Assembly: GCA_963743885.1 (NCBI GenBank)
Contig: CAVURJ010000002.1
Location: 305,706 to 369,705 of the forward strand
Direction: 5' to 3'
From: Candidatus Moraniibacteriota bacterium
GTDB lineage: Bacteria; Patescibacteriota; Minisyncoccia; Moranbacterales; UBA1568
DNA length: 64,000 nt
The position numbers were made by a program, and so were the translations under genes. Shown here piece by piece: positions 2,899 to 48,127 of this stretch (position 1 is the first letter of the stretch; each line of letters opens with the position of its first letter). Under the pieces are notes generated by a model that saw only the letters and a program-made list of their open reading frames with translations, did no database searches and had not been told where the DNA came from.

Positions 2899-3040
2899 AA
2901 TAACGGGTATTGAACTCCAGGGCAAGCCCTGGACCCAATCCCCCTCCGCCAGGGACGGAGGGTATTGCCCCGATTTTACCTGCGTTCCTCTCGGAAACGA
3001 GAGTTTACTCTCGTTTCACTCGCTACACTTGGTAATAAAT
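2899..3040 (+). repeat. copy A of repeated structured intergenic element (aataacgggtatt...cccgattttacctgc...covarying hairpin...ttggtaataaa), with ~60-nt hairpin-rich insert
   Basis: shares 5' and 3' blocks with copies at 14898-14987 and 47603-47760; stem aaacgagagt/actctcgttt. Confidence 0.55.
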
Positions 3041-3125
3041 CCAAAGTATAAATTTCAAAAATTTGAGCATTTGAATTTATGATTTGTTTGGAAATTGTGG
3101 TTTTGGATTTTGTGTTTTACAGATT
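3040..3125. repeat. AT-rich imperfectly palindromic intergenic element (aaatccaaa...gaatttatgatttgtttgga...tttggattt), family member 1 of 3
   Basis: near-identical 40-mer to 9436-9475 and reverse-complement similarity to 8190-8228. Confidence 0.4.
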
Positions 3126-9334: not shown

Positions 9335-9478
9335 TCTAAAAGCACCAAATCCAAAATTGCAATTTCCAAATAAATTACAATACTCAAAATCCAAATATGA
9401 CTCATATCGTTCCTGGTTTTGAAATTAGAATTTGTGATTTATTTGGAGCTTGTAATTTTGAATTTTAAGTTTTTTTGT
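9335..9478. repeat. AT-rich palindromic intergenic element, family member 3
   Basis: left half aaatccaaaattgcaatttccaaataaattacaat is approximate reverse complement of right half gaatttgtgatttatttggagcttgtaattttgaatttt. Confidence 0.4.
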
Positions 9479-10833: not shown

Positions 10834-13800
10834 ATGCGAAAAAATCACGTGTTTTTTGTGAGTGTTTTTTTGGTAGCGTTTTTTTGCAATAGCAGCATCG
10901 CTTCGGCGTATTATCAGGATGATGACGGTAGGTATATCGTCAATGAGGATGAGACATGGAACAAAGATAATACATATGTTTTTGATCACGAGGTCGTGGT
11001 CGATATGGGAGCAAAATTGATCATCGAGCCCGGTACAACAATCTCTTTTAGGCGTGATGATAATGGTGATGCGGTGCCGTTCAGTGTCTATGATGGCCAA
11101 GTACAGGCAATTGGGACCGAAACAGAGCCGATCGTATTCAGGCGCGAAGGCGATGATGGCGCATTCTATATTAATTTCGATGACGGAAGTAATAAGACGT
11201 CTGTTTTTAAGTACGTACGTTTTCTTGAGGGGGGTGACGCGTGGTATGTCGATGCCTGTACGGATTGTCAACAGTCGCTTTTTGAGGGTTTTTTTGTTCA
11301 TCGAGCCATGGCAGCGCAGCAAAAGGCGGGAACAGAAACGCTGAGATATTCATATGGAAAACTATTGATAGAGAACTCGGTCTTCTCGAAGAGCGCATTC
11401 ATGGATGTTTGGGCGCAAGAATCTGGAATTGGTGACATTTTTGATGAAGATGGGAAGGTCATAGGAAAAGATCCTGCGCGTCTCAATATTAGTAATTCTG
11501 ACTTTAGTGGTGACACGACGGTGCCAGCGTTGCAGGTGTATGATTCCCATTGTCCATTTGCTGATCCGAATTGCCTGAAGAAGATCACATTTAATAATAA
11601 TTGGTACAGTTCACCGAGCGGCCCGAACGCGACAAGCAATTCTCAGGGGACCGGAAAACAGGTTATCGGTGCCATCAATCTCAATGGTTGGAGCACGAGC
11701 CAATTCTTTTGTTTGGAGAATTGTCATTCGAGTGTGATGTTTCTGCCAGGATTCGAGGGGAGTAGGCTGCTTGAAGGTTCACAGCAGGTATGGGAACCAA
11801 GGGCTAATTTTGACGTGGAAAGACTGTATCTCGATAAGGGTAACAATATTTCCGTAGGAGGTATCATAGACGAGGTAAATATAACTCCGGTTACTGGTAT
11901 AGTAAACATTTACAAGACATTTGTTCGGCGGATGGATGCCATGAAGAATATTGACCACCTTATAAAGGATTGGAAGCCCGTGGCGTATGATTGGCGCCTT
12001 TCGTACGATGAAATACTTGCTGACGCATCGATTGAGAACTCCTTGAGAGATCTTGCTCTGAATTCGAATACTGGAAAAGTGACTATTGTCGCGCATTCGA
12101 ATGGCGGGTTACTTGCCAAGGCATTGATGAAGAAGATCGGCGATGCTGATACAGCGAAGCTGATTGATAAGGTTATTTTTGTGGCGGTCCCACAGGTCGG
12201 GACACCAGAGGCGATTATTGGGATGTTGAATGGCGAGAAGCAGGAAATCACACCGATGATGGATGAACGGACTGCTCGGGGATTGTCGGAGAACATGCCG
12301 GGAGCGTATCAATTGCTTCCATCAGATGAATATTTTTCGGTCGTACAGACTCCGGTTGTGACGTTTGATATTTCTGATAGTTCTGATTTGAAGGGGCGCT
12401 ATGGTGATAAAATAGAATCAAAGGGAGGACTGGATGATTTTCTCGATGATGGCCATAGGCGGGTATCGGCGATTGATGATGATATCCATACGCCGTCGAG
12501 TCTGAAGGGGAATCTTATAGACGCCGCAAAGAATGTGCATAGCTCGCTGGATGGTTGGGATGCTCCTGATGGAGTGAGAGTGGTCCAAATTGCTGGTTGG
12601 GGAGTGCCATCGACTACCAAAGGAGTAGAATACTTTTCAGAAAAGAAAAAGCATTGCGATGAATCGCTTTGTACTACGGCGGATTATCTGCGGTTAGGAG
12701 ACATCGATTCTACCATTGATGGTGATGGTACGGTGGTGTTTCCGAGCGCACTGTATATGGACGGTGGGGCAGAGAGGTATTATGTTGATTTGGCGGGATA
12801 TAATAAATCGCTTGATAGAATTTCTAATCTCCAGCTTTTAGGAATTGATCATAAAAATATTCTTGAAATTCCAGAACTCACCTCTTTTATAGTGGATTCT
12901 GTTTCTAAAAATCTGAAACCTATTGCTGATTATGATTATCTTTCGACAGAAATTCCGGATTCTGATGATGAAAATCGTATCCAGTATTCACTTCATTCAC
13001 CGCTTACTCTTGATTTATATGATGATCAGGGTCGGCATACTGGCGTGACGGCTGACGGGATTATCGAAGAGAAGATTCCAGGAACGTATTATAAACAGTT
13101 TGGTGACGTGAAGTTCATTTTCGCTGACGAGTCTTCTTCGATGCATGTCTCGATGAGTGGGTATGCCGCCGGGACATTCACGTTTTCCGTGAAGGAATTG
13201 CACGGTGACACGGAGCTCGGGGAGGTTGTATTCAAGGATATGCCGACGACCTCAGAGACCGAAGTGACCTTCGATATGCCGAGCGATCTCGCGCACGCTG
13301 GTGATTTGCATATTGATGTGGATGGGGATGAGGCGGTTGATTATCAGTTGCAGCCGAAAATAGGCGAAGTGGTGACGTTTGGAGAAAAAGACGAAATTGC
13401 CCCGACGACAACTCTTTCGCTCTTTGGTACCCAGGGAACGAATGGTTGGTATACGAGTGATGTGACAGTCACGCTCTCGGCTACGGACAATGATGGTGGC
13501 AGTGACATCGAAAAAAAGGAATACTCTCTCGATAATGGCACGACTTGGACCGCGTATGCCGATTCGTTCGTAGTCTCGACCGAAGGCACGATGACTCTCC
13601 AATATCGCTCCATCGACAAAGCTGGCAATCAGGAAGAGATGAAGACTGAAACCGTAAAGATCGACAAAATCAAGCCAATCATCACGGGGACAGCTCTTCC
13701 GGCTGCCGATGCGAACGGATGGAATACTACTGATGTTGAGGTACGTTTCGTCTGTACTGACAGTGGAGTGAGTCAGTCAGGCATTGAGACGGACATGGTA

Positions 13801-14475
13801 GCAGGGAGTACTCTGACATCAGAAGGCAAAGGGCAATCAGTGACGAATACGGGGGAATGTACCGACAAAGCTGGCAACCAGGCCATACTAGCAACGGTAT
13901 CGGGCATCAATATCGACAAAACCGCCCCGGAAGCGAAGATATCCTTCAATCCGACCACGCAGAAGCTTGATATATCAGGAACAGACAATCTTTCAGATGT
14001 TTCCGTCACTCTCCTCGAAAAACAAGAACTGACGCCATCAAATAAGAAGGTGAAGAAGATCAAAGACTGGTTCTCAAAGTGGCACGGCAAGCACAAGAAG
14101 AATCTTCCAGATATGCTCGCTACTATCACGGACCAGGCTAGTCATACTACGAGTCTTTCTTTCGAGAAGCAAGAAAACAAAGGAAATGCCTTTGTTCGCC
14201 TTCTCTCTATAGAGTATGATGGAGAGGAAGAAAATATCCTGAGAAACGCCTCTCTCGGCTATACCTGGCGCATAGACCGGAAGGGCCAGTATTTGGACTT
14301 TTCTTCATCGCTGATTACGGAGGATATTCGTCTTTTTTCCACCTACCTCTCTAAGCAGGATCGGACACTTATCCTGGAGCAGGAGAGGCGCCATCTTCTT
14401 CGTTTGACGAGCGTTGATGGGATGACAGTGCCATATCTGGAGAGTGAGAAAGGAAAAATGAAATTTGAGTATTAA
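10834..14475 (+). CDS. large secreted LCAT/PGAP1-like lipase-domain protein with beta-helix-like N-region and C-terminal Ig-like/conserved module (paralog P1)
   Basis: signal peptide; YDWR motif; nucleophile elbow VAHSNGG (AHSxG lipase variant); DGDGTV acid motif; YSLDNGTTW...YRSIDKAGNQEE beta-sandwich motif; last ~330 aa ~85-95% nt-identical to 42900-43965. Confidence 0.75.
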   Translation: MRKNHVFFVSVFLVAFFCNSSIASAYYQDDDGRYIVNEDETWNKDNTYVFDHEVVVDMGAKLIIEPGTTISFRRDDNGDAVPFSVYDGQVQAIGTETEPIVFRREGDDGAFYINFDDGSNKTSVFKYVRFLEGGDAWYVDACTDCQQSLFEGFFVHRAMAAQQKAGTETLRYSYGKLLIENSVFSKSAFMDVWAQESGIGDIFDEDGKVIGKDPARLNISNSDFSGDTTVPALQVYDSHCPFADPNCLKKITFNNNWYSSPSGPNATSNSQGTGKQVIGAINLNGWSTSQFFCLENCHSSVMFLPGFEGSRLLEGSQQVWEPRANFDVERLYLDKGNNISVGGIIDEVNITPVTGIVNIYKTFVRRMDAMKNIDHLIKDWKPVAYDWRLSYDEILADASIENSLRDLALNSNTGKVTIVAHSNGGLLAKALMKKIGDADTAKLIDKVIFVAVPQVGTPEAIIGMLNGEKQEITPMMDERTARGLSENMPGAYQLLPSDEYFSVVQTPVVTFDISDSSDLKGRYGDKIESKGGLDDFLDDGHRRVSAIDDDIHTPSSLKGNLIDAAKNVHSSLDGWDAPDGVRVVQIAGWGVPSTTKGVEYFSEKKKHCDESLCTTADYLRLGDIDSTIDGDGTVVFPSALYMDGGAERYYVDLAGYNKSLDRISNLQLLGIDHKNILEIPELTSFIVDSVSKNLKPIADYDYLSTEIPDSDDENRIQYSLHSPLTLDLYDDQGRHTGVTADGIIEEKIPGTYYKQFGDVKFIFADESSSMHVSMSGYAAGTFTFSVKELHGDTELGEVVFKDMPTTSETEVTFDMPSDLAHAGDLHIDVDGDEAVDYQLQPKIGEVVTFGEKDEIAPTTTLSLFGTQGTNGWYTSDVTVTLSATDNDGGSDIEKKEYSLDNGTTWTAYADSFVVSTEGTMTLQYRSIDKAGNQEEMKTETVKIDKIKPIITGTALPAADANGWNTTDVEVRFVCTDSGVSQSGIETDMVAGSTLTSEGKGQSVTNTGECTDKAGNQAILATVSGINIDKTAPEAKISFNPTTQKLDISGTDNLSDVSVTLLEKQELTPSNKKVKKIKDWFSKWHGKHKKNLPDMLATITDQASHTTSLSFEKQENKGNAFVRLLSIEYDGEEENILRNASLGYTWRIDRKGQYLDFSSSLITEDIRLFSTYLSKQDRTLILEQERRHLLRLTSVDGMTVPYLESEKGKMKFEY

Positions 14476-14491
14476 TTTAAAAAATATTTTT

Positions 14492-14902
14492 ATGGAAAAG
14501 TTTTGGACAAAAAAAAAGATTTTTTTTGTAGCATTTTTCGGTGTTATTTTCTTTTCTGTATCTATTTTTTCTAGGGAAATTTCTTTGTGTCCCTCATATA
14601 GTTATAGTGATTGTGCTGAGTTTTTTGATAATTTTGCTAAAATACTTTTTCCCTTTCTTTTTCTCTTTTTCTTCTCCCTCGTCACGTATTTTATGAAGGA
14701 AGAAGTTTTTCAGGCTTGGTTCCGTCTCGTCCGCATCTATATACCTGGATCCATATTTCTTATCCTTCTTGCCCCGTCCTATAGTAGTAATTGGATGTTC
14801 CCGTATGACAAGGGTATGGCGGCCGTTATCGCGTCTGTTGGCTTTATCATCGTTTCGATTATTAATATCACCTGGTCCTACAGACGGACGAAACAAAAAT
14901 AA
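14492..14902 (+). CDS. small polytopic membrane protein (type A partner; SLVTYFMKEEVFQAWFR motif); annotated from first ATG, track ORF begins at TTG 14465 overlapping P1 stop
   Basis: K-rich N-terminus followed by 3-4 hydrophobic helices; motif shared with 45058 and 46429 proteins. Confidence 0.55.
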   Translation: MEKFWTKKKIFFVAFFGVIFFSVSIFSREISLCPSYSYSDCAEFFDNFAKILFPFLFLFFFSLVTYFMKEEVFQAWFRLVRIYIPGSIFLILLAPSYSSNWMFPYDKGMAAVIASVGFIIVSIINITWSYRRTKQK

Positions 14903-14987
14903 CGGGTATTAACCCGATTTTACTGGCGCTCCGTTCGAAAACAAAAGTAAACTTTTGTTTCACTCACTACACTTGGTAATAGAAATT
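14898..14987 (+). repeat. copy B (minimal, ~90 nt) of repeated structured intergenic element, ending 1 nt before the PfkB kinase ATG
   Basis: cgggt-atta-acccg hairpin; covarying stem aaacaaaagt/acttttgttt; 3' ttggtaatagaaatt. Confidence 0.55.
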
Positions 14988-16016
14988 ATGTTGTTCAAAA
15001 AGAAACCGTTTGAAGTCATCTGTATCGGGTCGACGTCCAAGGACGTCTTCTTTCCGACGGACGAGGGGGTCATCATCGAGACGCCGGAAGATATCACCTC
15101 CAAAGTGAAGGTGGCTTTCGAGATGGGTGGGAAGTTCCGTGTGAAGAATCGCTATGAGGCGGTCGGTGGTGTCGCGGCCAACGTTGCTTGTGGTCTCGGT
15201 CGGCTCGGACACAAAGTCGCCTGCTATAGCAAGGCCGGAACGGACGAGATGGGGAAATGGGCCGTAGCGGAGCTTCGGAAGAATCACGTCTCGACTGAGC
15301 GCTTTTTCTCTGACAAGAGCGTCAAGACCGACCTTTCAGCCATCGTCGTCATGGAACAGAATGCTGAGCGCATCATCTTTCATAATCGGGATGCCAATGA
15401 GAAGCTCGAGATCATCGAGGAGCGTCTGCTTGATACCAAATGGCTCTTCGTGAGTGCTCTCAATGGCGATTGGAAGGGGAATCTCGGCAAGATCCTCGAT
15501 ATCCGCGAACGGCACGGTTTTCGGCTCGCACTCAATCCCGGCCAGCACAATATCAAGCATGATGCCCGGGAGGTGCTCCAGGCTATCCGGAAGACGGATC
15601 TGCTCATTCTCAATAAGGACGAGGCGATCGAGCTCATCATGCAGTCGCACGAGCAGTATACCCGCGAGGAGCTTGATGATGAGGTATTCCTCCTCTCGGC
15701 GCTCCACGAGGCTGGGGCCAAGACGATCGGCATGACGGACGGCAAGCGCGGCGCCTGGGGATCGGATGGCAAGGAACGCTGGTTCTGTCCGATCCATACG
15801 CGCGCTGGTGTCATCGATAGCACCGGCTGCGGCGATGCGTTCGGATCAGGGCTTTTTGCGGCACTGCTTGAGGAACGGCCGCTCGATGTGGCGCTTCGTT
15901 ATGGCATGGCGCAGAGCGGCAGTGTCGTAGGATATTACGGCGCTATCGAAGGTCTGCTCCGTCCAGAAGAGATGGAGAGTCTCATCCAGAAGATTATACC
16001 GAAACGTCTCAAATGA
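14988..16016 (+). CDS. PfkB-family carbohydrate/nucleoside kinase (ribokinase-like)
   Basis: DSTGCGDAFGSGLFAAL (PfkB signature 2, DTxGAGD-like); GG dipeptide region; start set at ATG 14988 because 14955-14987 is occupied by the repeat element. Confidence 0.8.
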   Translation: MLFKKKPFEVICIGSTSKDVFFPTDEGVIIETPEDITSKVKVAFEMGGKFRVKNRYEAVGGVAANVACGLGRLGHKVACYSKAGTDEMGKWAVAELRKNHVSTERFFSDKSVKTDLSAIVVMEQNAERIIFHNRDANEKLEIIEERLLDTKWLFVSALNGDWKGNLGKILDIRERHGFRLALNPGQHNIKHDAREVLQAIRKTDLLILNKDEAIELIMQSHEQYTREELDDEVFLLSALHEAGAKTIGMTDGKRGAWGSDGKERWFCPIHTRAGVIDSTGCGDAFGSGLFAALLEERPLDVALRYGMAQSGSVVGYYGAIEGLLRPEEMESLIQKIIPKRLK

Positions 16017-24863: not shown

Positions 24864-24883
24864 CTTACTCTTTTTTGTAGTAT

Positions 24884-25077
24884 AAAATCCCGCCCCCGCA
24901 GCCGCTGTTTTCGGATCATCCGGCAAACTCGCGAGGCTTTTCTGTCAGAGCGAAACATTTCCCTCCCTCTTTACGACCAGGGCCTGCCTGCTGGTAGGCA
25001 GGGAAATGTTTCGGACAGAAAAGCTCTCTCAAACAATGCCGGATGACCGAGAAACACGTCTGCGGGGGCGGGATTTT
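24884..25077. repeat. 194-bp long imperfect palindrome (arms ~90 bp, termini aaaatcccgcccccgcag / ctgcgggggcgggatttt) with internal sub-hairpins; MITE-like or cruciform element
   Basis: left arm and reverse complement of right arm align over ~85 nt with few mismatches; central hairpin cctgcc-tgctggta-ggcagg. Confidence 0.6.
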
Positions 25078-25246
25078 CAAGTTTTAAAAATGTTACCTGA
25101 AATGACGGCCGTCGGCTCGCGTTACATTTTACTTTTGTGATTTTTTGGGGAAATGAAAACCGCCCGGGATACATTCGCGGTGTTGCGCGAGGTATCCTTG
25201 AGGGCGGTAGTGCGGCCGGTCAGTTGCCGGCGATCGGAGAAGCGGG

Positions 25247-37372: not shown

Positions 37373-37449
37373 ATTGCAAGAATAGCATTTTTGTGCTATA
37401 ATTAGTTGTTTGCAGTACCTTTTCATGACAGATCGGATCATCGCGCGAT

Positions 37450-37581
37450 CCCTCACATGAAATGACATGGCCAGTCCGCTGGCTCTTTAGGGACGATGTG
37501 TAAGTAAAAAAGCTATTACTTCGCACAAAACGTTCTCTTGGATGCAAACAAACAAGTTTGTTGTGTCATTTCATGTGAGGG
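37450..37581 (+). repeat. R1: ~130-nt element bounded by perfect 18-bp inverted repeats ccctcacatgaaatgaca / tgtcatttcatgtgaggg, inside RNase P RNA at the P2/P3 position
   Basis: direct repeat of 38007-38140. Confidence 0.6.
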
Positions 37582-38006
37582 AAGTGAGGAAAGTCCGGAC
37601 ACTCAGCCGCCGAAAGGCGGCACGGGTAGCAGGTAACGCCTGTCAGCCGATGCATGGCATCGGAAGTTCCAAGAGACAAGTTCCAAGAAACAAGGAATAT
37701 CCAATATTCAATGACCAATGATCAAGGCGGAGCAGTATTCCGAAATTGTGATTTGAGAGTTGGAGATTGTATCTTATTTGTATCTTGTAGCTTGAGGCTT
37801 GGTGATTCCGCTGCCATGCAGCGGCAGAGGTGCGAACAGTGACGCCGAAGCCGAAAGGCCGAGGATCCCTTCGGGGATAATTCCGTTGGAAGGCGGAAGT
37901 GAAACGGCTAAATCCTTACTTGGGTGCAAGGCCGCGTCTCGGCGTAAGCCGAGAAGAGCCGCAAAGATCTTCCTGGCGACAGGAAGGCAAGAGAAATGAT
38001 GGTCAT

Positions 38007-38140
38007 CCCTCACATGAAATGACATAGCCAGTCCGCTGGCTTCTTGAGGACCATTGTGTAAGCAGGCAGAATCAGCCATGTGCATGATGCGTTCTCTCGG
38101 ATGCAAACAAACAAGTTTGTTGTGTCATTTCATGTGAGGG
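38007..38140 (+). repeat. R2: second copy of the 18-bp-IR-bounded element, immediately 5' of the P4 3' strand
   Basis: 44-nt and 20-nt identical blocks with R1; central ~30 nt diverged. Confidence 0.6.
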
Positions 38141-38227
38141 AGACAGAATCCGGCTTATAGATCTGTCATGAAAAGGTATTAGAATAACAGGGTATAGGGG
38201 AAAGGGCTTAGGGTATAGTCAAAAAAT

Positions 38228-38285
38228 CTAAACCCTACTATCTATATCCTGTCCTCTAAACCCTATCCCCTAAACCCTAACCCCT
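38228..38285. repeat. short telomere-like CTAAACCCT/CCCTAA repeats with inverted TTAGGG-like partner upstream (38190-38225)
   Basis: tctaaaccctac...ctctaaaccctatcccctaaaccctaacccctg. Confidence 0.35.
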
Positions 38286-38292
38286 GTTTACA

Positions 38293-39723
38293 ATGAAGCG
38301 TTCCGAAATATTCTTCAGCGCTATTCAGGTGCCAGTCGATCTCATTGTGATTGTGCTGGCGGCTATTTCTGCGTATTACCTGCGCAGCTGGGAACCTGTC
38401 CGGCCGTTCTTGTCGCCGGTCTTCAATCTTTCTTTCGAGGATTATTTCCGTTTTGCGGCGACGGTCTCGCCGTTTTTCCTGCTCGTCTACGCGATCGAGG
38501 GGCTGTATACCATGCGTGTCACCCGCAGCTTCTGGCGCGAGGTATCGAGCATCTTCCGGGCGACGTCGCTCGGTCTCATTATCCTTATCATCGCGGTCTT
38601 TCTCAAGCGCGAATGGTTTTCTTCGCGTTTCGTCATTCTGGCAGGGTGGGGGTTGGCTGTGGCCTACGTCGTCTTCGCGCGCTATCTCATCCAGCGGGCC
38701 CAGAAGTGGTTCCTGGTGAATCGTGGTATTGGCGTCCATCGTGTCTTGCTCATCGGCTACAACGACAAGATGCGGCTGCTCCGCATGCGCCTCGACCATG
38801 ACAAGACGCTCGGCTACCGTGTGGTCGACCAAATTTCCGACGCCAGTCTGACGCACATCAAGGAGATCCGTCAGATGAAGGGTGTCGATGAGATCGTTGT
38901 GGGCGATCCGTCGCTTACCGATGATGAGCAGGAGAAGCTTTTCGATTTCTGCCAGATCAACAATGTCGCTTACAAATACTATCCGACGACGCTCCAGACG
39001 CAGCGTTTCTCTATGCGCATGTTCCAGGGCGAGCCGATCATCGAGTTCGAGCATACGCCGCTTGATGGCTGGGGCAAGGTGCTCAAGCGTGCCTATGACA
39101 TCGTCGCCGGCTTCGTCCTGACGGTGCTTTTTTCCCCGATCATGCTCGTCATCGCCATCCTCATCAAGCTTGAGGATCCGGATGGTCCGATCATCTACAA
39201 GAACGAGCGTATCGGCGAGAACGGCAAGAAATTCTTCGTCTACAAGTTCCGCTATATGCAGTGGAAGTATTGTGTCACCAAGGACAATCCGAAGATGAAA
39301 GAAGCAATCGCCTTCGAGAAAGAGCTCATCGCGAAGCACAATACCCGTGAAGGTGGTATCCTCTACAAGATCAAGGATGATCCGCGCAAGATGCGGGTCG
39401 GTGCGTTCATCGAGCGTTTCTCACTCGACGAGTTCCCGCAGTTCTTCAATGTCCTGAAGGGGGATATGAGCCTCGTGGGGCCGCGGCCGCACCAGGAGCG
39501 CGAAGTGGAGCTCTACAAAGAGTACCATCGCCGCCTCCTCACCATCAAGCCGGGCGTGACCGGTATGGCGCAGGTCTCCGGCCGCTCCGACCTCGCCTTC
39601 GAGGATGAGTACCGTCTCGACGTTTTCTACATCGAGAACTGGTCGCTTTGGCTTGATATCATCATCTGTTTCAAGACCGCCGGTGCGCTCCTCCGCCGCC
39701 GGAAGAATGGCCATGGGAAGTAG
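38293..39723 (+). CDS. polyprenyl-phosphate hexose-1-phosphate transferase (WbaP/EPS initiating sugar transferase family)
   Basis: N-terminal 4-5 TM, C-terminal 'bacterial sugar transferase' block KFRYMQ...DEFPQFFNVLKGDMSLVGPRP. Confidence 0.85.
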   Translation: MKRSEIFFSAIQVPVDLIVIVLAAISAYYLRSWEPVRPFLSPVFNLSFEDYFRFAATVSPFFLLVYAIEGLYTMRVTRSFWREVSSIFRATSLGLIILIIAVFLKREWFSSRFVILAGWGLAVAYVVFARYLIQRAQKWFLVNRGIGVHRVLLIGYNDKMRLLRMRLDHDKTLGYRVVDQISDASLTHIKEIRQMKGVDEIVVGDPSLTDDEQEKLFDFCQINNVAYKYYPTTLQTQRFSMRMFQGEPIIEFEHTPLDGWGKVLKRAYDIVAGFVLTVLFSPIMLVIAILIKLEDPDGPIIYKNERIGENGKKFFVYKFRYMQWKYCVTKDNPKMKEAIAFEKELIAKHNTREGGILYKIKDDPRKMRVGAFIERFSLDEFPQFFNVLKGDMSLVGPRPHQEREVELYKEYHRRLLTIKPGVTGMAQVSGRSDLAFEDEYRLDVFYIENWSLWLDIIICFKTAGALLRRRKNGHGK

Positions 39724-40764: not shown

Positions 40765-43700
40765 ATGCTCAAAAAAATAATTTTTGTAGCATTTATAATG
40801 GTGGTTCTTGTGGGAGCCGTCGTTCCTTTTTCTGTTGATTTTACGCTTCTTTATTCTTCAGCTGATGATGAATATACTGAGATTCTTGAGGATACTGAAT
40901 GGTCTGGCGAGATGACTATCGGTGGTTATGTTTGGATTGATCCAGAAGCTACACTAACCATAAAGAAAGGTTCCGTACTTATAATCAAGGGTGGAACTTT
41001 TTTTGATGTGAATGGGAAGATTTCTTTTGATGGGACAGTTAAGGATCCGGTGGTGATACGGAAAGAATCGTCTGGTTCAAACGAGGGATATTCGATCGCC
41101 GCTAATGGAGCTGGTCGTATAAATATTCGTAATGCTGATATAAGCGGTGGCGGTAGTGCAATAGATGCTGTTCTTGTAAAAAGGAAGCGATCCTTTTTAC
41201 AAACCGTATTTGCGACGATATTTTATTCTGGAGCAATCAGCGTTCATGATAGTGGATCGTTTGTCGCCGAAGGAGTGAATTTTCATGATAATACTGTCGC
41301 TGTCCATGTTGATCGAAATGAGTATTCTTATAATGATGATGTTGTCGTGAATCGGTCTAAGTTTTCGGACAATGTTTATGATGTAGTAAATGTCGATTCG
41401 GCGCAGTTTGATTTTCGATATAACTGGTGGGGTAATGTGTCTGGTCCGGAATCATGTTTGGATTCCGAGGAATGCGGGTCAAGACAGTTTAAAAAAATTA
41501 GAGGGGATGCGAATATCACTGACTGGGCAAAAGAAGAAGATTTCAGAGACCCAGTGATTATTGTACCTGGTATTGTCGGATCTACCATGAAAGATGGGAA
41601 ATTAGAGTTGGATCAAATACTCCATACCTACGATAATCTTTACGCGTCTTTCGTTGCTAATGGTTATCTACAAGAGAAGAATCTTTTTGTCTTTCCATAT
41701 GAATGGCGTGATAGCAATATAGATAACGCAGTGCTTCTTAAGGAAAAAATAGATGAAATAAAGCAATCCATGCATTGGCCAAAAGTTGATATCGTAGCTC
41801 ATTCTATGGGCGGGCTTTTGACAAGACAATATCTCGAGTCTGGTGGGTATCAACAGGATATTGATCAGCTGATAACAATAGGCACTCCGCAGAGGGGCTC
41901 TCCGGCGGCATATTTGACGTGGGGCGGCGGAAAAATCGGCCCGAGTTTTTCTGATATTATTGTGGGGCTTATTTTTGATCAAGAAGCCAGAAAGAATGGG
42001 TACAAGGATATATTTGATTACGTCAGGAATCGGCCCATACTTTCAGTTAAAGAACTTCTACCAGAATATAGCTATCTTCATGATGCGTTAAATAGTGACG
42101 AAACAAGGGTGTACCCATCCAATTATCCGAGAAATGAATTTCTTGAGAATCTCAATGTTTTACAAAATAAAGAACACTTGGATGATGTTGAATTTAGTAA
42201 AATTGTAGGTAATATAAGGGATAATAAAACCATTTCCGGTATACGAACCGTAAATAATGGAAATTATGCCATAGGAGAGCCATGGGAGCACGGATATCCG
42301 ATTGGATTCGAAATACCCGCTGGTGATAGGGGGTTGTTGTTTGGTGATGGAGACGGTACTGTTCCATTGGAATCAGCGAGGTATTTAGATGGAATTTATA
42401 ATATCGAACTTGATTCTAGTCATAGAAGCCTTCCTACGGATGCCCAGAGTGATGTTTTGAGTATTTTAACTGGAACATCGCCGGAAATTATTGTGGATAG
42501 GGGGATAGTGGAAGACATTCTTATCGCTCGTGCTTTTTCTCCTATTGATATCCAGATTATTTCTCCCTCAAAGAAAAGGATTGGTAAGAATTTTGAGACG
42601 GGAGGCGTATATGATGAGATTCCTGGTGCATATTACACCGGATACGATACGAAATCTGAGTTCATTACCATCCCTAATCCAGAAGATGGAGAATACAAGA
42701 TTTTGACTCGGGGGACGGACACTGGAAGCTATCGTATAGAAGTGGCTAAAATTGTTGAGGATGGAGATGGCAGCACGAAGGAGTCCGCAGTGTCATTCGC
42801 CGGAACGGCCGTTTTGGATGCGGAAGAGGAGACAGTCGTGATGGTTGAAGGTGATGAGGTATTTTCTGGCGGGATAAAAGATGAAACCGCTCCGATAACG
42901 ACAGCCTTGCTCTCTGGTACCCAAGGAACGAGCGGCTGGTATACGGGTGAGGTGATGGTGGCGTTCTCGGCTACGGACAATGATGGCGGCAGTGGCATCG
43001 ACAAAACTGAATACTCTCTCGATAACGGAGTAAATTGGATTGCATACGCCGACCCATTTACAATTTCGACCGAGGGCACAACGACCTTCCAATATCGTTC
43101 CATCGACGAAGCCGGTAATCAAGAAGAAGCGAAGACGGAAATCATTAAGATCGATAAAACTAAGCCGATTATCACGGGAACAACTCTTTCAGTGGCCGAT
43201 GCGAACGGATGGAATACTACTGATGTTGAGGTGCGTTTTACCTGTACCGACAGCGGACTGAGCCAGTCCGGTATCGAGACAGACACGGTGGCAGGTGGCA
43301 CTCTGACATCAGAAGGAAAAGGGCAATCATTGACGAATACAGGGGTATGTACTGACAAGGCAGGTAACCAGGCTGCTCCAACAACCGTATCGGGTATTAA
43401 TATCGACAAAGCCTCCCCTGAAGCGAAAATATCCTTCAATCCAACCACGCAGAAGCTTGATATATCAGGAACAGACAATCTTTCAGATGTTTCCGTCATC
43501 ATCCTCGAAAAACAAGAACTGACACCAGCAAACAAGAAAGTAAAGAAGATCAAAGACTGGTTCTCTCGTTGGCACAACAGGCATAAGAAGGACCTCCCAG
43601 ATATGCTTGCTACCATCACAGATCAATCTGGCCGCACTACAGCACTTTCTTTTGAGAAGCGGGAGAACAAAGGCAGTATCTTTGCCCACCTGCTTTCCTT

Positions 43701-43965
43701 GGAGTATGATGGAGGAGAGGAAAAGATCCTGAATGAAGCTTCCCTCGGCTACGCCTGGCATACGGATAAGAGAGGGCGCTACATTGATTTCTCCTCATCT
43801 CTCTCCGTAGAAGATTCCCGCCTCATGTCTACGTATCTTCAGAGGCAGGATAGAACAATCATTCTAGAGCAGGTGAGGCGTCGTCTTCCGAAACTGACAA
43901 GCGAGGAGGGGATGGTGGTGCCGTATATGGAGAGTCAGAAAGGAAGTATTGGTATAAAGCATTAA
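40765..43965 (+). CDS. large secreted LCAT/PGAP1-like lipase-domain protein (paralog P2) with conserved C-terminal module
   Basis: signal peptide; FPYEWRDS (DWR-type motif); VAHSMGG nucleophile elbow; GDGDGTVPLESA; YSLDNGVNW...YRSIDEAGNQEE; C-terminal ~330 aa near-identical to P1. Confidence 0.75.
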   Translation: MLKKIIFVAFIMVVLVGAVVPFSVDFTLLYSSADDEYTEILEDTEWSGEMTIGGYVWIDPEATLTIKKGSVLIIKGGTFFDVNGKISFDGTVKDPVVIRKESSGSNEGYSIAANGAGRINIRNADISGGGSAIDAVLVKRKRSFLQTVFATIFYSGAISVHDSGSFVAEGVNFHDNTVAVHVDRNEYSYNDDVVVNRSKFSDNVYDVVNVDSAQFDFRYNWWGNVSGPESCLDSEECGSRQFKKIRGDANITDWAKEEDFRDPVIIVPGIVGSTMKDGKLELDQILHTYDNLYASFVANGYLQEKNLFVFPYEWRDSNIDNAVLLKEKIDEIKQSMHWPKVDIVAHSMGGLLTRQYLESGGYQQDIDQLITIGTPQRGSPAAYLTWGGGKIGPSFSDIIVGLIFDQEARKNGYKDIFDYVRNRPILSVKELLPEYSYLHDALNSDETRVYPSNYPRNEFLENLNVLQNKEHLDDVEFSKIVGNIRDNKTISGIRTVNNGNYAIGEPWEHGYPIGFEIPAGDRGLLFGDGDGTVPLESARYLDGIYNIELDSSHRSLPTDAQSDVLSILTGTSPEIIVDRGIVEDILIARAFSPIDIQIISPSKKRIGKNFETGGVYDEIPGAYYTGYDTKSEFITIPNPEDGEYKILTRGTDTGSYRIEVAKIVEDGDGSTKESAVSFAGTAVLDAEEETVVMVEGDEVFSGGIKDETAPITTALLSGTQGTSGWYTGEVMVAFSATDNDGGSGIDKTEYSLDNGVNWIAYADPFTISTEGTTTFQYRSIDEAGNQEEAKTEIIKIDKTKPIITGTTLSVADANGWNTTDVEVRFTCTDSGLSQSGIETDTVAGGTLTSEGKGQSLTNTGVCTDKAGNQAAPTTVSGINIDKASPEAKISFNPTTQKLDISGTDNLSDVSVIILEKQELTPANKKVKKIKDWFSRWHNRHKKDLPDMLATITDQSGRTTALSFEKRENKGSIFAHLLSLEYDGGEEKILNEASLGYAWHTDKRGRYIDFSSSLSVEDSRLMSTYLQRQDRTIILEQVRRRLPKLTSEEGMVVPYMESQKGSIGIKH

Positions 43966-43992
43966 AAGTAAGAAGATTAATTTAAAAAAAGT

Positions 43993-44355
43993 ATGAGAAA
44001 AAATATATTTTTATTAGTGATGTTTGTTTGTGGACTGATTGGTATGGGAATTGATTATTTTAATTTAATAAATTTCCATTTAGGAGATGTGCTGTCGAAT
44101 ATCTCATTTTCTTTGATCGTAACTTCCATCATCATTTTTATTGGAAATGATTTGATGTTCCATTTCTGGCTCAAGTTTTTCTGTTGGTGGTTTGTGATCT
44201 CTGTGGTTTTTATTTTCATTTCTCCTGCGGGTATAGGTGGATTTTTTCCATCCATGTTTACAAAAGAGCTTGTTTCTTTGTGGGTGGGTATAGTCCTCGT
44301 TCTGATGAGCCTTTTCATGATTATTCGAGAATCTTATAAGTCTCGTAAACAGTAG
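43993..44355 (+). CDS. small polytopic membrane protein (type B partner, 120 aa)
   Basis: 4 hydrophobic helices, C-terminal basic tail; 28 nt after P2. Confidence 0.5.
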   Translation: MRKNIFLLVMFVCGLIGMGIDYFNLINFHLGDVLSNISFSLIVTSIIIFIGNDLMFHFWLKFFCWWFVISVVFIFISPAGIGGFFPSMFTKELVSLWVGIVLVLMSLFMIIRESYKSRKQ

Positions 44356-44365
44356 GATGAAAAAC

Positions 44366-44396
44366 CAAAACAAGGGCTTAAGTCCTTGTTTTTTTA
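44366..44396 (+). terminator. cassette-boundary terminator aaacaagggc-ttaa-gtccttgtttttt
   Basis: stem + T-run; related to hairpins at 46112 and 46805. Confidence 0.55.
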
Positions 44397-45014
44397 TGTA
44401 CCGATAAAGCTGGCAACCAGGCCGTACCAGCGACTGTGTCGGGTATCAACATTGATAAAATCGCTCCAGAAGCCAAAATATCCTTCAATCCAACCACGCA
44501 GAAACTCGATATATCCGGCATGGATAATCTCTCGGATGTTTCCGTTGTTACTATCGACAAGCCCGAGATGAATTCTTCAAACAAGAAGGTGAAGAAAATC
44601 AAGGACTGGTTCTCCGTCTGGCATGGTAGGCACAAGAAGAACCTTCCAGATATGCTTGCTACCATCACAGACCAGGCTGGCCATACTACAGCACTTTCTT
44701 TTGAGAAGCGGGAGAACAAAGTCAGTATCTTTGTCCGCCTGCTTTCCTTGGAGTATGATGGAGGAGAGGAAAAGAGCCTGAAGGATGCTTCTCTCGGTTA
44801 TGCCTGGCATACGGATAAGAGAGGGCGCTACATTGATTTCTTCTCATCTCTCTCCGTAGAAGATTCCCGTCTCATATCCACGTATCTTCAGAGGCAGGAT
44901 AGGACAATCATTTTGGAGCAGGTGAGGCGTCATCTTCCGAAACTAATAAGCGAGGAGGGGATGATGGTGCCGTATATGGAGAGTAATGCAGGAGAGGCGG
45001 AGATAAAGTATTAA
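44397..45014 (+). pseudogene. orphan C-terminal cassette F1: last ~205 codons of the P1/P2 lipase genes, begins abruptly after a terminator in the CTDKAGNQA motif, no ATG start (track ORF uses GTG at 44436)
   Basis: ~93-95% nt identity to 43350-43965; upstream end more P1-like (tgtaccgacaaagctggcaaccaggcc). Confidence 0.6.
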
Positions 45015-45057
45015 ATAGAATAAAAAGTTTAAATCAAAAAGAGTATGACAAAAAAAT

Positions 45058-45456
45058 GTGTTTTTGTTGTCACTTGCTTATATTTTGTATGTTGTAGTGC
45101 TCATGGTTATAAGCGCGAATTGTACGGTATCTCATGGCTGGTGCAATATTCGTGAGGATGACCCATTTGGTATGATAATCTTTATTTTCATGCCGTTCCT
45201 TCCGATGTTTTTCCTTTCCCTCATCACTTACAAAATGAAAGAAGAGGCCTTCCAGGCTTGGTTTCGCTTCGCTCTCTGGTTCGTGCCGATTATTATGGTT
45301 ATGATGTATCTCCTGAATGGATCGGGACAAAGTGGAATGGGGATTAGTGGGGCGGTTTCTCGCTCATTCGATTTTCTTGTTATCAGTATCTTCTACGTTA
45401 TTTTTATTGTAGTCTCTCTAATCAGGGTCGCTCTTGCGTACAAGCGGGCAAGGTAG
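45058..45456 (+). CDS. small polytopic membrane protein (type A partner; SLITYKMKEEAFQAWFRF motif); start uncertain (GTG 45058 or ATG 45103)
   Basis: homologous to 14492 and 46429 proteins. Confidence 0.5.
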   Translation: MFLLSLAYILYVVVLMVISANCTVSHGWCNIREDDPFGMIIFIFMPFLPMFFLSLITYKMKEEAFQAWFRFALWFVPIIMVMMYLLNGSGQSGMGISGAVSRSFDFLVISIFYVIFIVVSLIRVALAYKRAR

Positions 45457-45464
45457 AATTAGGA

Positions 45465-45490
45465 AACCAGGGGATTTCCCCTGGTTTTTT
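45465..45490 (+). terminator. terminator aaaccagggg-attt-cccctggtttttt
   Basis: 9-bp perfect stem + T-run. Confidence 0.55.
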
Positions 45491-45499
45491 AATAGAGTC

Positions 45500-45685
45500 T
45501 ATCTTGATACAGAGCTCCGTCTCAAGGAAAAATCTAGATTGAAAGCGGAGTATCGGAAACAGAAGAATGAGACAAAGATAACGGAGAAGGATAAGGAAGA
45601 AAAGACAAAGACCGTAATAACAAGGTCGGGTTTGGTGTCTGTCAATGTAGAGACGAAGGCGGGGGATATAATTTGGGGATATTAA
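45500..45685 (+). pseudogene. possible degenerate tail cassette F2 (no ATG; ends ...VSVNVETKAGDIIWGY)
   Basis: position in array and weak tail resemblance (xESxxGxxxIxY); low confidence. Confidence 0.25.
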
Positions 45686-45705
45686 ATAATATTATTGAAA
45701 TTTTT

Positions 45706-46104
45706 ATGTTTAAAAAAATATTTGGAAGCGTAATTCTATCGTCTTGGGTGTATATTTTTTGGGCGCTTTCTTTGAGGAATGATTATCCATCGGCTTGCAT
45801 CCCAATCGGTATTCAGGAATTGACGAATATATGCGAGGCCACAGCACAGTATCTGCTTGTCTTTGTGCCGATGGGTGTATTTTTTGTGATATTAGCTATT
45901 TGGAATAATGAGATATATAAAAAATGGGAGAAGTTCACACTTATATTTTTAGGATTATATTTTATTATATTTTTTGTGCTTACCCCAACGGACGCTCCTG
46001 ATTTTGTTCCTTTTTATAAGGAAACAGTGGCTATTTGGGGAATGATACTGTATGCAGTAATATCTATGGTGCATATAGCGTACCTGAAATTAAAGAAGAT
46101 CTGA
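45706..46104 (+). CDS. small polytopic membrane protein (type C, 132 aa from first ATG; track ORF begins at TTG 45673)
   Basis: K-rich N-terminus then 4 TM helices. Confidence 0.45.
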   Translation: MFKKIFGSVILSSWVYIFWALSLRNDYPSACIPIGIQELTNICEATAQYLLVFVPMGVFFVILAIWNNEIYKKWEKFTLIFLGLYFIIFFVLTPTDAPDFVPFYKETVAIWGMILYAVISMVHIAYLKLKKI

Positions 46105-46111
46105 AATTTTA

Positions 46112-46140
46112 AAACAAGGGCACCGCGGCCCTTGTTTTGG
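46112..46140 (+). terminator. cassette-boundary hairpin aaacaagggc-accgcg-gcccttgttttgg
   Basis: same stem as 46805 hairpin. Confidence 0.5.
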
Positions 46141-46193
46141 TATATACTGAAAGTAAATCCCACTATATCCCAAGGAAAGATGAGACCTGGATC

Positions 46194-46376
46194 ATGGAGA
46201 AGTCCGAAACATTGAAGGATGACGACCAGGATGAAGAAAATAGGTGTGGCCATGACGAGAACGATAGATGCGGCGATGAGCATGAAGACAATGGTCGGCC
46301 AGTCAGAGTGAAACTTCCTGGTATGGTAATTCCGTATTTGGAGAGTGTTAAAGGGAGTGTGGGGATAAAATACTAA
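46194..46376 (+). pseudogene. orphan tail cassette F3: acidic 60-aa ORF ending PGMVIPYLESVKGSVGIKY (C-terminal 20 aa of P2)
   Basis: tail identity with P2 (GMVVPYMESQKGSIGIKH); upstream part unrelated and acidic. Confidence 0.4.
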
Positions 46377-46428
46377 ATAATAAAGCTAAATTTAATAATA
46401 TGTCGACAAAAAAAATATACTAGTATTT

Positions 46429-46797
46429 TTGGGAGTTTTGGTACTAGCTGCTCTTTTTTCTACAGAAGAGTTGCAGTTTTGTTGGTTTATCGGATTAAGG
46501 GAATGCCCTATTCACTTGGATGATTCTCAGGAGTCGCTATTTTTTCCATTTATTGTAATGTTTTTTCTTTCCCTCATCACCTACAAAATGAAAGATGAAG
46601 TCTTTCAAGCTTGGTTTCGTTTCGCTCTTTGGTTTGTGCCGATCATCATGTTTTTCCAGTTCGTCTTCATGAATTCTAGCGGCGGAGGAAGCATCGGAAA
46701 CAATGACTTCGCCATTTTCTTCACCTCGCTTTTCTATATCGCTTTCGTCCTCGTCTCTCTCATCAAGATCGTCCGGGCGTACAAGCGGACGAGATAG
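46429..46797 (+). CDS. small polytopic membrane protein (type A partner; SLITYKMKDEVFQAWFRF motif); TTG start in track, true start uncertain
   Basis: 76% identical segment to 45058 protein. Confidence 0.5.
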   Translation: MGVLVLAALFSTEELQFCWFIGLRECPIHLDDSQESLFFPFIVMFFLSLITYKMKDEVFQAWFRFALWFVPIIMFFQFVFMNSSGGGSIGNNDFAIFFTSLFYIAFVLVSLIKIVRAYKRTR

Positions 46798-47602: not shown

Positions 47603-47760
47603 AATAACGGGTATTCACCCCAGGGCAAGCCCTGGACCAAAAAACGAACTGATGTTCGTTTTGTTCTGCGGCAAGCCGCGGGGTATTTGACCCGATTTTA
47701 CCTGCACTCGCTCGAAAACGAAAGTGTACTTTCGTTTTACTCGCTTCGTTTGGTAATAAA
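47603..47760 (+). repeat. copy C of repeated structured element (with ~70-nt hairpin-rich insert)
   Basis: aataacgggtatt...gacccgattttacctgcactcgctcgaaaacgaaagtgtactttcgttttactcgcttcgtttggtaataaa. Confidence 0.55.
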
Positions 47761-48035
47761 ATCCCCGCCTAACGATGTTGAGTGTTACCTCTTGGCCGGG
47801 ATTTCGAATCAAGTATACGACGGTTTAGAACAAAGGGAAAGCCTATATGGTATATGAAAATGGCTGGAAATAGGGTGAATGTGGAGTTGCTCGGACTTTC
47901 TTAGTCTTGGTCACCCCGCCGAAGCGGGGATCAGTGGGTTTCCCCAAATGTACCTGTATTATAGCAGGAAATGCGGTTGTGTCAGTAGAGTAGAAAGCAG
48001 TTATTCAAAAATTTCGAATAACTGCTTCTGATGGG

Positions 48036-48077
48036 AAGTCGAAGTGAAACGTTCCACTTATTTCGTTTGGTAATAAA
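48036..48077 (+). repeat. copy D (degenerate 3' portion) of the repeated element
   Basis: tcgaagtgaaacgttccacttatttcgtttggtaataaag. Confidence 0.35.
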
Positions 48078-48079
48078 GA

Positions 48080-48127
48080 AACATGTACACTTTTCGCAAT
48101 TGCGAAAAGTGTACATGTTGTTTTTTT
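48080..48127 (+). terminator. very strong intrinsic terminator (20-bp perfect palindrome aacatgtacacttttcgcaa/ttgcgaaaagtgtacatgtt + tttttttt) with no protein gene within 600 nt upstream
   Basis: perfect stem and 8-T run. Confidence 0.6.

Follow-up and report, generated by a model that had tools for sequence, protein, structure and literature searches.

A family of short, structured intergenic repeats in Moranbacteria is best explained, with a probability that we put at about 0.7, as a non-autonomous derivative of IS200/IS605 transposons that is moved in trans as folded single-stranded DNA. Three full copies of the element (A, B and C) and a fragment (D) lie in the 64-kb stretch of DNA analysed here, referred to as the window, and about 100 further copies were found in Moranbacteria genomes and metagenomes. 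The element is a previously undescribed repeat family in a CPR lineage, and the literature searched contained no described CPR or Moranbacteria repeat family or RNA motif of such kind. The original prediction had seen in it either a structured RNA, possibly a cis-regulatory leader, a riboswitch-like RNA or an sRNA, or else a MITE. The mobile-element half of that proposal proved to be the closer reading, except that the element lacks the terminal inverted repeats of a MITE and has its kin among the single-strand transposons that use Y1 transposases. The RNA roles, on the other hand, did not hold up, as the orientation of copies is random, their neighbours are unrelated and there is no conserved promoter upstream.

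Copies of the element in the window

The claim of three full copies and one fragment was confirmed (Table 1). A covariance model was built from 32 foreign copies and run on the 64 kb with filters off. Only A, B and C were significant (68, 94 and 83 bits; E from 5e-13 to 5e-19), and the fragment is a weak match. The shared 5' and 3' blocks with a variable insertion in the first stem had been described correctly, and the hairpin arms quoted for A, B and C are indeed complementary within each copy. The density of the element in the window is about one per 15-20 kb. The sequence TTGGTAATAA, allowing at most one mismatch, occurs 9 times against 2.3 expected, a count reached in 0 of 100 shuffles.

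Table 1. The element and its parts in the 64-kb window; T strand is the transposase-sense strand
Feature	Position	T strand	Remarks
Copy A, long form	2899-3040	-	+ in the orientation of the original prediction; core model match 2953-3040, 68 bits, E=4.5e-13
Copy A, right-end-type hairpin CCAGGGCAAGCCCTGG	2917-2932	-	reverse complement is a CTTG-loop hairpin; architecture as in IS right ends
Copy A, degenerate left-end-type hairpin CCCTCCG-ccaggga-CGGAGGG	2942-2962	-	replaces consensus CCGCGGCAAGCCGCGG; long forms compared: L023, L037, L040, L049
Copy A, P3 hairpin aaacgagagt/actctcgttt	2995-3016	-	
Copy B, short (minimal) form	14898-14987	-	model match 14897-14984, 94 bits, E=4.6e-19
Copy B, P1 mini-hairpin CGGGTattaACCCG	14903-14916	-	reverse complement CGGGTTAATACCC: 13/13 match to the segment immediately left of the L108 IS left-end hairpin
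Copy B, P2/P3 module	14920-14979	-	P2: TTACT 14920-14924 with GGTAA 14975-14979; P3: 14939-14948 with 14951-14960
Copy C, long form with three inserted hairpins	47603-47760	-	core model match 47673-47761, 83 bits
Copy C, right-end-type hairpin CCAGGGCAAGCCCTGG	47620-47635	-	
Copy C, optional middle hairpin AAAAACGAAC-tgat-GTTCGTTTT	47640-47662	-	
Copy C, left-end-type hairpin CTGCGGCAAGCCGCGG then GGTATTTGACCCG	47666-47694	-	reverse complement matches the L110 IS left end 26/27
Copy C, P2/P3 module	47698-47756	-	P2: 47698-47702 with 47752-47756; P3: 47716-47725 with 47728-47737
Fragment D, only the 3' block of the predicted strand (T-strand left end)	48036-48077	-	model E=2.8 only

Copy B makes up the entire gap between the stop of the ORF at 14465-14902 and the start of a kinase gene assigned by Pfam to PfkB. 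As had been noted, it abuts this gene, ending at 14987 with the ATG at 14988, and the TAA stop of the ORF before it (14900-14902) lies within AATAAC. Its P3 arms are aaacaaaagt/acttttgttt and the loops internal to P2/P3 are conserved. Copy C, in which the P3 arms are aaacgaaagt/actttcgttt, is 86-91% identical to long forms from other genomes. The left-end-type hairpin of copy A has diverged from the consensus, which suggests that A is an old and probably immobile copy. Fragment D and copy C have an exact 16-mer, TTCGTTTGGTAATAAA, in common, and right after D there is a strong bidirectional terminator with an 18-bp perfect stem (48080-48119). On the minus strand, a near-consensus sigma-70-type promoter faces copy C (47958-47985; CTGACA, 16 nt, TG-TATAAT; 11/12). 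Both the promoter and the terminator are located within a 960-nt gene-free stretch upstream of a DUF3800 gene, and none of the DUF3800 motifs of Rfam had a match.

The window carries core genes (CTP synthase, ScpA/B, MraY, PGK, enolase, FtsA and PheT), and a tRNA/tmRNA scan returned none. Several other repeats were also observed. A second intergenic family, AT-rich and AAATCCAAAATTGCAATTTCCAAATAAA-like, has inverted and direct copies at 2867-2903, 3077-3118, 9339-9380 and 9432-9474; the members of one pair fold into a large hairpin between the PGK and enolase genes, and positions 9339-9466 are 79% identical to positions 5386-5508 of L090. A 13-nt direct repeat, AATAAATCCAAAG, is present on both sides of copy A plus 23 nt. 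Two repeated blocks at 37448-37582 and 38005-38141 are 557-559 nt apart (98% and 88% identity), a 14-nt periodic repeat (TCTAAACCCTA…) occupies 38227-38282 just 5' of the sugar-transferase gene at 38293-39723, and 44-nt intergenic inverted repeats (…AAAATCCCGCCCCCGCAGCCGCTG…; 24871-24914 and 25047-25090) are 75% complementary and 132 nt apart. Copies B and C are downstream of paralogous gene sets (10834-14902 and 40765-46797) encoding LCAT/lipase-like proteins of 1213 and 1066 aa, and small paralogous ORFs follow the LCAT/lipase-like genes at 14465-14902, 45058-45456 and 46429-46797. The G+C content is 49-58% in positions 1-40000 compared with 41-45% in 40001-64000. Judging by its genes, which include those for DUF3800, methyltransferase, polysaccharide-export and glycosyltransferase proteins, the low-G+C 24 kb may be a variable or acquired surface-polysaccharide region.

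Structure and covariation

Three helices, P1, P2 and P3, are supported. P3 covaries strongly in large samples. P1 and P2 were fixed by the first search pattern and were assessed in divergent copies and in a scan anchored on P3; once left free, they too displayed compensated variants (CAGGT/ACCTG and ATGGT/ACCAT in P1; AUAGCAU/AUGCUAU, UUCCC/GGGAA, UAGCC/GGCUA and UUGC/GCAA in P2). The compensatory changes reported for the window are real. The actual structure was better than 500 of 500 shuffles and better than all slid registers. The internal loops between P2 and P3 (CACUCGCUCGG and C-CUCGCUUCGUU) are non-palindromic and almost invariant, even across divergent subfamilies.

None of this favours one strand. 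On the strand of the original prediction, P1 and P3 together contain 21 G.U and 35 A.C mismatches, so that G.U is not favoured. The long copies have fold z-scores of -4.2 and -4.3, and the reverse strand folds no worse, or even better. Matches of the model on the opposite strand are confined to the P3 hairpin. Taken together, mismatches, folding and opposite-strand scoring give no strand signal either way.

Other readings of the sequence were tried and rejected. An alternative in which the 5' arm of P3 pairs with CUUCGUUU further downstream shows no covariation and is broken in L022 and in copy B. A coding function was dropped: one frame stays open throughout the short form, but there are 1-nt indels, variation in loop length and a tandem period of 79 nt, and the inserts do not have lengths divisible by three. 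A 13-bit match was all that spoke for reading the long form as a degenerate short-form dimer, and this reading was set aside.

Distribution and forms in other genomes

When one genome per species was scanned with an exact pattern, 63 loci were returned. About 50 are true copies, and almost all of these come from Candidatus Moraniibacteriota MAGs, with several copies per genome; a second scan was anchored on P3, and copies from metagenomes were added. The search of viral contigs produced 0 matches. At the nucleotide level, the window is 66-76% identical to Moraniibacteriota contigs with which it is syntenic. About a dozen of the element-bearing MAGs are titled 'uncultured Bdellovibrionales' though they are syntenic with the window (e.g. 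L051 and L054). Since the element is specific to Moranbacteria, this synteny suggests that the label is probably wrong.

Two forms recur: a short one of about 85 nt, which is the commonest, and a long one whose first stem encloses 55-75 further nucleotides that form hairpins. Tandem copies have one TAATAA in common (L054, L009, L012 and L052), and there are truncated copies (a 33-nt stump), internally deleted copies and a copy devoid of P3. Copies within a genome are 77-88% alike, and for two thirds of copies the nearest relative is in another genome; thus, there is no sign of a recent burst.

Orientation, neighbours and boundaries

All copies in the window had been reported on the plus strand, 5' of plus-strand genes. 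The observation is true but carries little weight, as about 90% of the genes in the window are on the plus strand and GC skew is positive throughout. For the other loci, the orientation of neighbours was taken from a codon-score gene caller checked on the window. Relative to the two flanking genes, 17 copies are same/same, 15 opposite/opposite, 8 convergent and 5 divergent. Opposite-strand neighbours were confirmed to be real genes (among them RNase J, UvrB, FtsZ, GAPDH, ATP synthase beta subunit and BipA). Random orientation of additional copies, which the original prediction had itself named, along with non-compensatory stem changes, as evidence against its RNA reading, is therefore what we observed (17 same/same versus 15 opposite/opposite). 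No recurrent gene family was found beside the element; the neighbours are unrelated housekeeping genes.

These data bear directly on the idea that pfkB, the MFS transporter gene and the DUF3800 gene are controlled by the element as a cis-regulatory leader or riboswitch. We regard this idea as extremely improbable. It draws on the placement of the window copies upstream of plus-strand genes, in particular of copy B against the start codon of pfkB. However, 15 copies run antisense to the genes on both sides and 8 sit between convergent ones, all neighbours being verified genes; the downstream genes have no functional theme in common, and the element is missing from the orthologous leaders in related genomes. 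Covarying structure does not discriminate between a riboswitch and a transposon, as it is also expected of transposon ends that fold as single-stranded DNA. Nothing found here suggests regulation of any of the three genes by the window copies.

The element might instead be a functional structured RNA of another kind, a multi-copy small RNA or a processed module in P2/P3 for which the transposon ends serve as a vehicle. This reading would account for the covariation of all three helices, for the strong conservation of nominally single-stranded internal loops and for the fold z-scores of the long copies, and PATEs of the IS200/IS605 superfamily can carry guide-RNA scaffolds (PMC10055086). Even so, we consider it improbable. 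The Rfam scan proposed along with the original prediction, run with Rfam 15, gave 0 matches across the window at the gathering threshold and only chance-level ones when permissive. The boundary profile reveals no promoter-like conservation upstream of the element, and copy B has no room for a promoter. The random orientation to neighbours and the lack of a strand signal, including no excess of G.U over A.C and at least as good a fold of the reverse strand, also speak against an RNA. As for the possibility that the element and a terminator form one sRNA unit, it was rejected since terminator-like hairpins are not enriched downstream (22% versus 16% upstream, p=0.35).

The same boundary profile defines the element sharply. 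ATAA is 98-100% conserved at the 5' edge of the predicted strand and AATA-A 94-100% at the 3' edge, and conservation ends abruptly at (A)ATAA on both sides. In at least 8 copies, B included, the TAA of the upstream gene is within AATAAC.

Gain, loss and turnover at orthologous sites

Comparison of orthologous sites points to mobility. One site is filled in L011 and empty in L028, the TAA stop being retained in both; at another, L028 is filled whereas L011 has a 33-nt remnant in the opposite orientation. L056 is filled and L040 empty at an orthologous site, and one further site has three states: a long forward copy in L057, a short reversed copy in L063 and none in L097. L029 is filled where the syntenic position of the window is empty. 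Copy A and a copy in L051 lie between orthologous genes and yet belong to different subfamilies. We take these filled, empty and inverted sites as evidence of mobility. The empty sites (L011/L028, L056/L040 and L097) are too diverged to separate a TTATT target from a 4-5 bp duplication.

Some copies are nevertheless well preserved. Orthologous copies in L008 and L013 are 95% identical compared with 78-90% for their flanks, which could reflect selection on resident copies. In line with this, it can be argued that the element is REP-like and domesticated, that is, IS200-type debris kept for an orientation-independent host function, such as the protection of mRNA 3' ends, termination or the attachment of nucleoid/topology proteins, and hardly transposing now. 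Consistent with such a reading are the moderate divergence of copies with their nearest relatives often in other genomes, the identity of 85-91% between elements of genomes in which flanking genes are only 66-76% identical, the conservation of non-palindromic internal loops in divergent subfamilies and the lack of tnpA at most loci. Yet presence/absence and opposite orientation at orthologous sites amount to turnover, as do different subfamilies at the intergenic site of copy A and L051, and the terminator-like hairpins beside the element are not enriched. The GTAG/CGTC tag is also missing, and there is no RAYT gene between inverted REPs. On balance, we find this explanation unlikely.

Link to Y1-transposase insertion sequences

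The preferred reading, a gene-less IS200/IS605 derivative, rests on a direct connection with transposase-bearing elements. A tblastn search with an IS608 TnpA sequence matched a 148-aa ORF in a single contig, L068, which also bears a core copy. The ORF belongs to Y1_Tnp (PF01797; Pfam E=1.9e-33). Hairpins of the sequence CCCCGCGGCTTGCCGCGG, which is CCGCGGCAAGCCGCGG of the long form reverse-complemented, are present in its flanks, and in all DNA compared this 16-mer is confined to long forms and the flank of the L068 tnpA. The ORF and its 62-87% identical homologues are preceded by GGGT(N)AATA(TT)-CCCCGCGGCTTGCCGCGG and followed by (A)TACCCCG..CGGGG-T(T/A)GTT(C/T)ATT^, where ^ denotes the edge of the element. 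On the T strand, the IS thus consists of a T-rich/TTATT flank outside its left edge, a linker of about 11 nt, GGGT(N)AATA(TT), the hairpin, tnpA and the right flank. Two of these proteins, P0077 and P0072, recur with unchanged sequence in at least 5 contexts and in 2 contexts, respectively, with sharp IS boundaries, which indicates a mobile IS with ends set by the points where flanks diverge. In five contexts GGGT…AATA falls within the IS boundary, which makes it a component of the IS and not a preferred target.

The "extra hairpins" of the long form, when reverse-complemented, match both the left and the right ends of IS200-like elements. The reverse complement of the long form in L057 agrees with the L108 IS left end at 30/31 positions, that of copy C with the left end in L110, which is from a Patescibacteria genome, at 26/27, and that of P1 of copy B with the L108 left end at 13/13. 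This evidence shows the ends of the element to be homologous to those of IS200-like elements with Y1/HUH transposases. Because the element is kin to single-strand Y1 transposons, its stems would covary without any RNA function. The enzyme itself is rarely nearby: no tnpA was found in the window, L068 is the only element-bearing locus that has one, and the model search detected no core copy within 4 kb of the other tnpA homologues that it covered (L101-L108). Some IS200-like tnpA genes are located beside DUF3800 (L121, 873-2113), an IS1595 DDE transposase (L102, 1996-3196) or a mutator-type transposase (L122, 112-1714). The proximity to mobile or defence-type genes suggests that insertions concentrate at hot spots or that mobile DNA forms nests.

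Anatomy of the element

Read on the T strand and placed after TTATT^, the element begins with ACC, followed by the P2/P3 module (about 63 nt), GGTAAAATC, CGGGT(T)GAATA, an internal part and CCCGTTATT^. The internal part is made up of the left-end hairpin CCCCGCGGCTTGCCGCGG, an optional hairpin, the right-end hairpin CCAGGGCTTGCCCTGGGG and TGAATA. It is kept in the long form (A and C) and missing in the short form (B), in which what is left, GGGTGAATACCC, forms the small stem P1. The long form has two subterminal CTTG-loop hairpins, and the short form only the P1 mini-hairpin and the unrelated P3. What had been described as the 5' block corresponds to the right tip of a transposon-like unit, and the 3' block to its left edge plus the target.

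There are no terminal inverted repeats, as the 5' end (CGGGTATT...) and the reverse-complemented 3' end (ACCAAACG...) have nothing in common. Conservation of TTATT at the left flank amounts to 94-100%, and copies in tandem share a single TTATT. The right tip is TTATT as well, and a duplication of (A)ATAA is indistinguishable from a target plus an identical right tip. In the IS200/IS605 family, insertion places the left end 3' of a tetra- or pentanucleotide that is specific to the element, and inverted repeats are absent (PMC5027513); the arrangement TTATT^ACC…GTTATT^ without inverted repeats fits this rule. A classical MITE is derived by deletion from a DDE-transposase IS and has both terminal inverted repeats and a duplicated target site. 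It would likewise be short, intergenic and multi-copy, and AATAA at both edges can be read as such a duplication. We nevertheless judge it very unlikely, as the termini are not mutual inverted repeats, the "duplication" is identical in about 95-100% of copies instead of depending on the site, and the ends are homologous to those of Y1-transposase IS. Integron attC sites, IS91/Helitron elements and DDE-MITEs were weighed on sequence grounds and dropped, as R''/R' motifs, a recombinase or inverted termini were lacking.

A model of transposition and its difficulties

According to the model that we favour, copies would have been moved, now or formerly, in trans by a Y1 TnpA through the 'peel-and-paste' single-strand pathway, with insertion 3' of TTATT. 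The helices would covary because the strand has to fold as single-stranded DNA for the enzyme. Folding of P2/P3 would return the TTATT cleavage site to roughly the IS-like distance from the left-end hairpin. With a right tip identical to the target, an element inserted into AATAA where this includes a TAA stop would restore the stop, and this would explain why copies, for example B, often start exactly at a stop codon.

Gene-less IS200/IS605 derivatives mobilised in trans are documented as palindrome-associated transposable elements, or PATEs (PMC10055086), moved by Y1/HUH TnpA. The element resembles them in many respects: its ends are homologous to tnpA-bearing IS200-like ends, the subterminal hairpins of the long form have the same orientation at both ends, inverted terminal repeats are absent, and a fixed pentanucleotide, TTATT, stands 5' of the left end. 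It is also gene-less, multi-copy and intergenic, and compensatory changes keep its stems, as expected for ends that are read as folded single strands. There are differences, too. Where the IS have a linker of about 11 nt separating the left-end hairpin from the cleavage site, the element has the 63-nt P2/P3 module, which is without counterpart in any IS copy examined. Its commonest form is devoid of both canonical transposase-binding hairpins and has only a mini-hairpin of 4-5 bp. We count both features against the IS200/IS605 reading. In addition, the right tip is identical to the target sequence, and no bias towards the lagging-strand template was detected.

In IS608-type elements, the active strand is expected to be biased to the lagging-strand template. 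The 17:15 ratio of orientations relative to flanking genes is a weak test of such bias, given the small numbers and the lack of a replication map for the other loci. In the window, all 4 copies have the T strand on the minus strand, while GC skew and gene direction make the plus strand the lagging-strand template. A search for IS608-style pairs of guide and cleavage-site sequences at the ends of the element yielded no convincing rule.

It is tempting to speculate that P2/P3 is a new functional fold riding on IS200-type ends, either an accessory structure of single-stranded DNA or a transposon-borne ncRNA, although we would call this idea tentative and on the whole unlikely. As an accessory structure, it would present TTATT to the transposase and so let the hairpin-less short forms move. 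As an ncRNA, it would act with a protein partner, similarly to the omega RNAs of the IS200/IS605 superfamily.

Comparison with other repeat families helps to place the element. REP sequences are palindromes of 20-40 nt with a 5' GTAG (or CGTC) tag, found mostly in inverted pairs (PMC3333891). Like REP/BIME associated with RAYTs, the element consists of dispersed intergenic hairpins that are related to the ends of Y1 elements, have compensated stems and occur in both orientations, and by analogy a host role is possible. Unlike them, it has neither the tag nor inverted pairs, and its unit is asymmetric and 85-160 nt long. Moreover, a RAYT is a single gene at a fixed site flanked by REPs (PMC3333891), whereas the related tnpA genes here occur in several contexts. 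Pneumococcal BOX and neisserial Correia elements are, as is the element, modular, strongly folded and intergenic, with optional internal hairpins, in compact genomes. They have the inverted ends and short duplications typical of mobilisation by DDE-type enzymes. The Moranbacteria element has neither such ends nor such duplications.

Implications

Covariation is usually regarded as the mark of functional RNA, but on the favoured reading it is also produced by transposon ends folded as single-stranded DNA. Consequently, anyone searching CPR genomes for structured RNAs should look at orientation and at orthologous sites before a riboswitch is called. For the host, the element would insert exactly at TAA stops with the protein left unchanged, and it fills entire intergenic gaps in very small genomes. 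It may influence operon structure and assembly breaks in Moranbacteria MAGs, and it offers a practical marker. Finally, the P2/P3 module and the abundant hairpin-less form pose a tractable question, namely how Y1 transposases locate their cleavage site.
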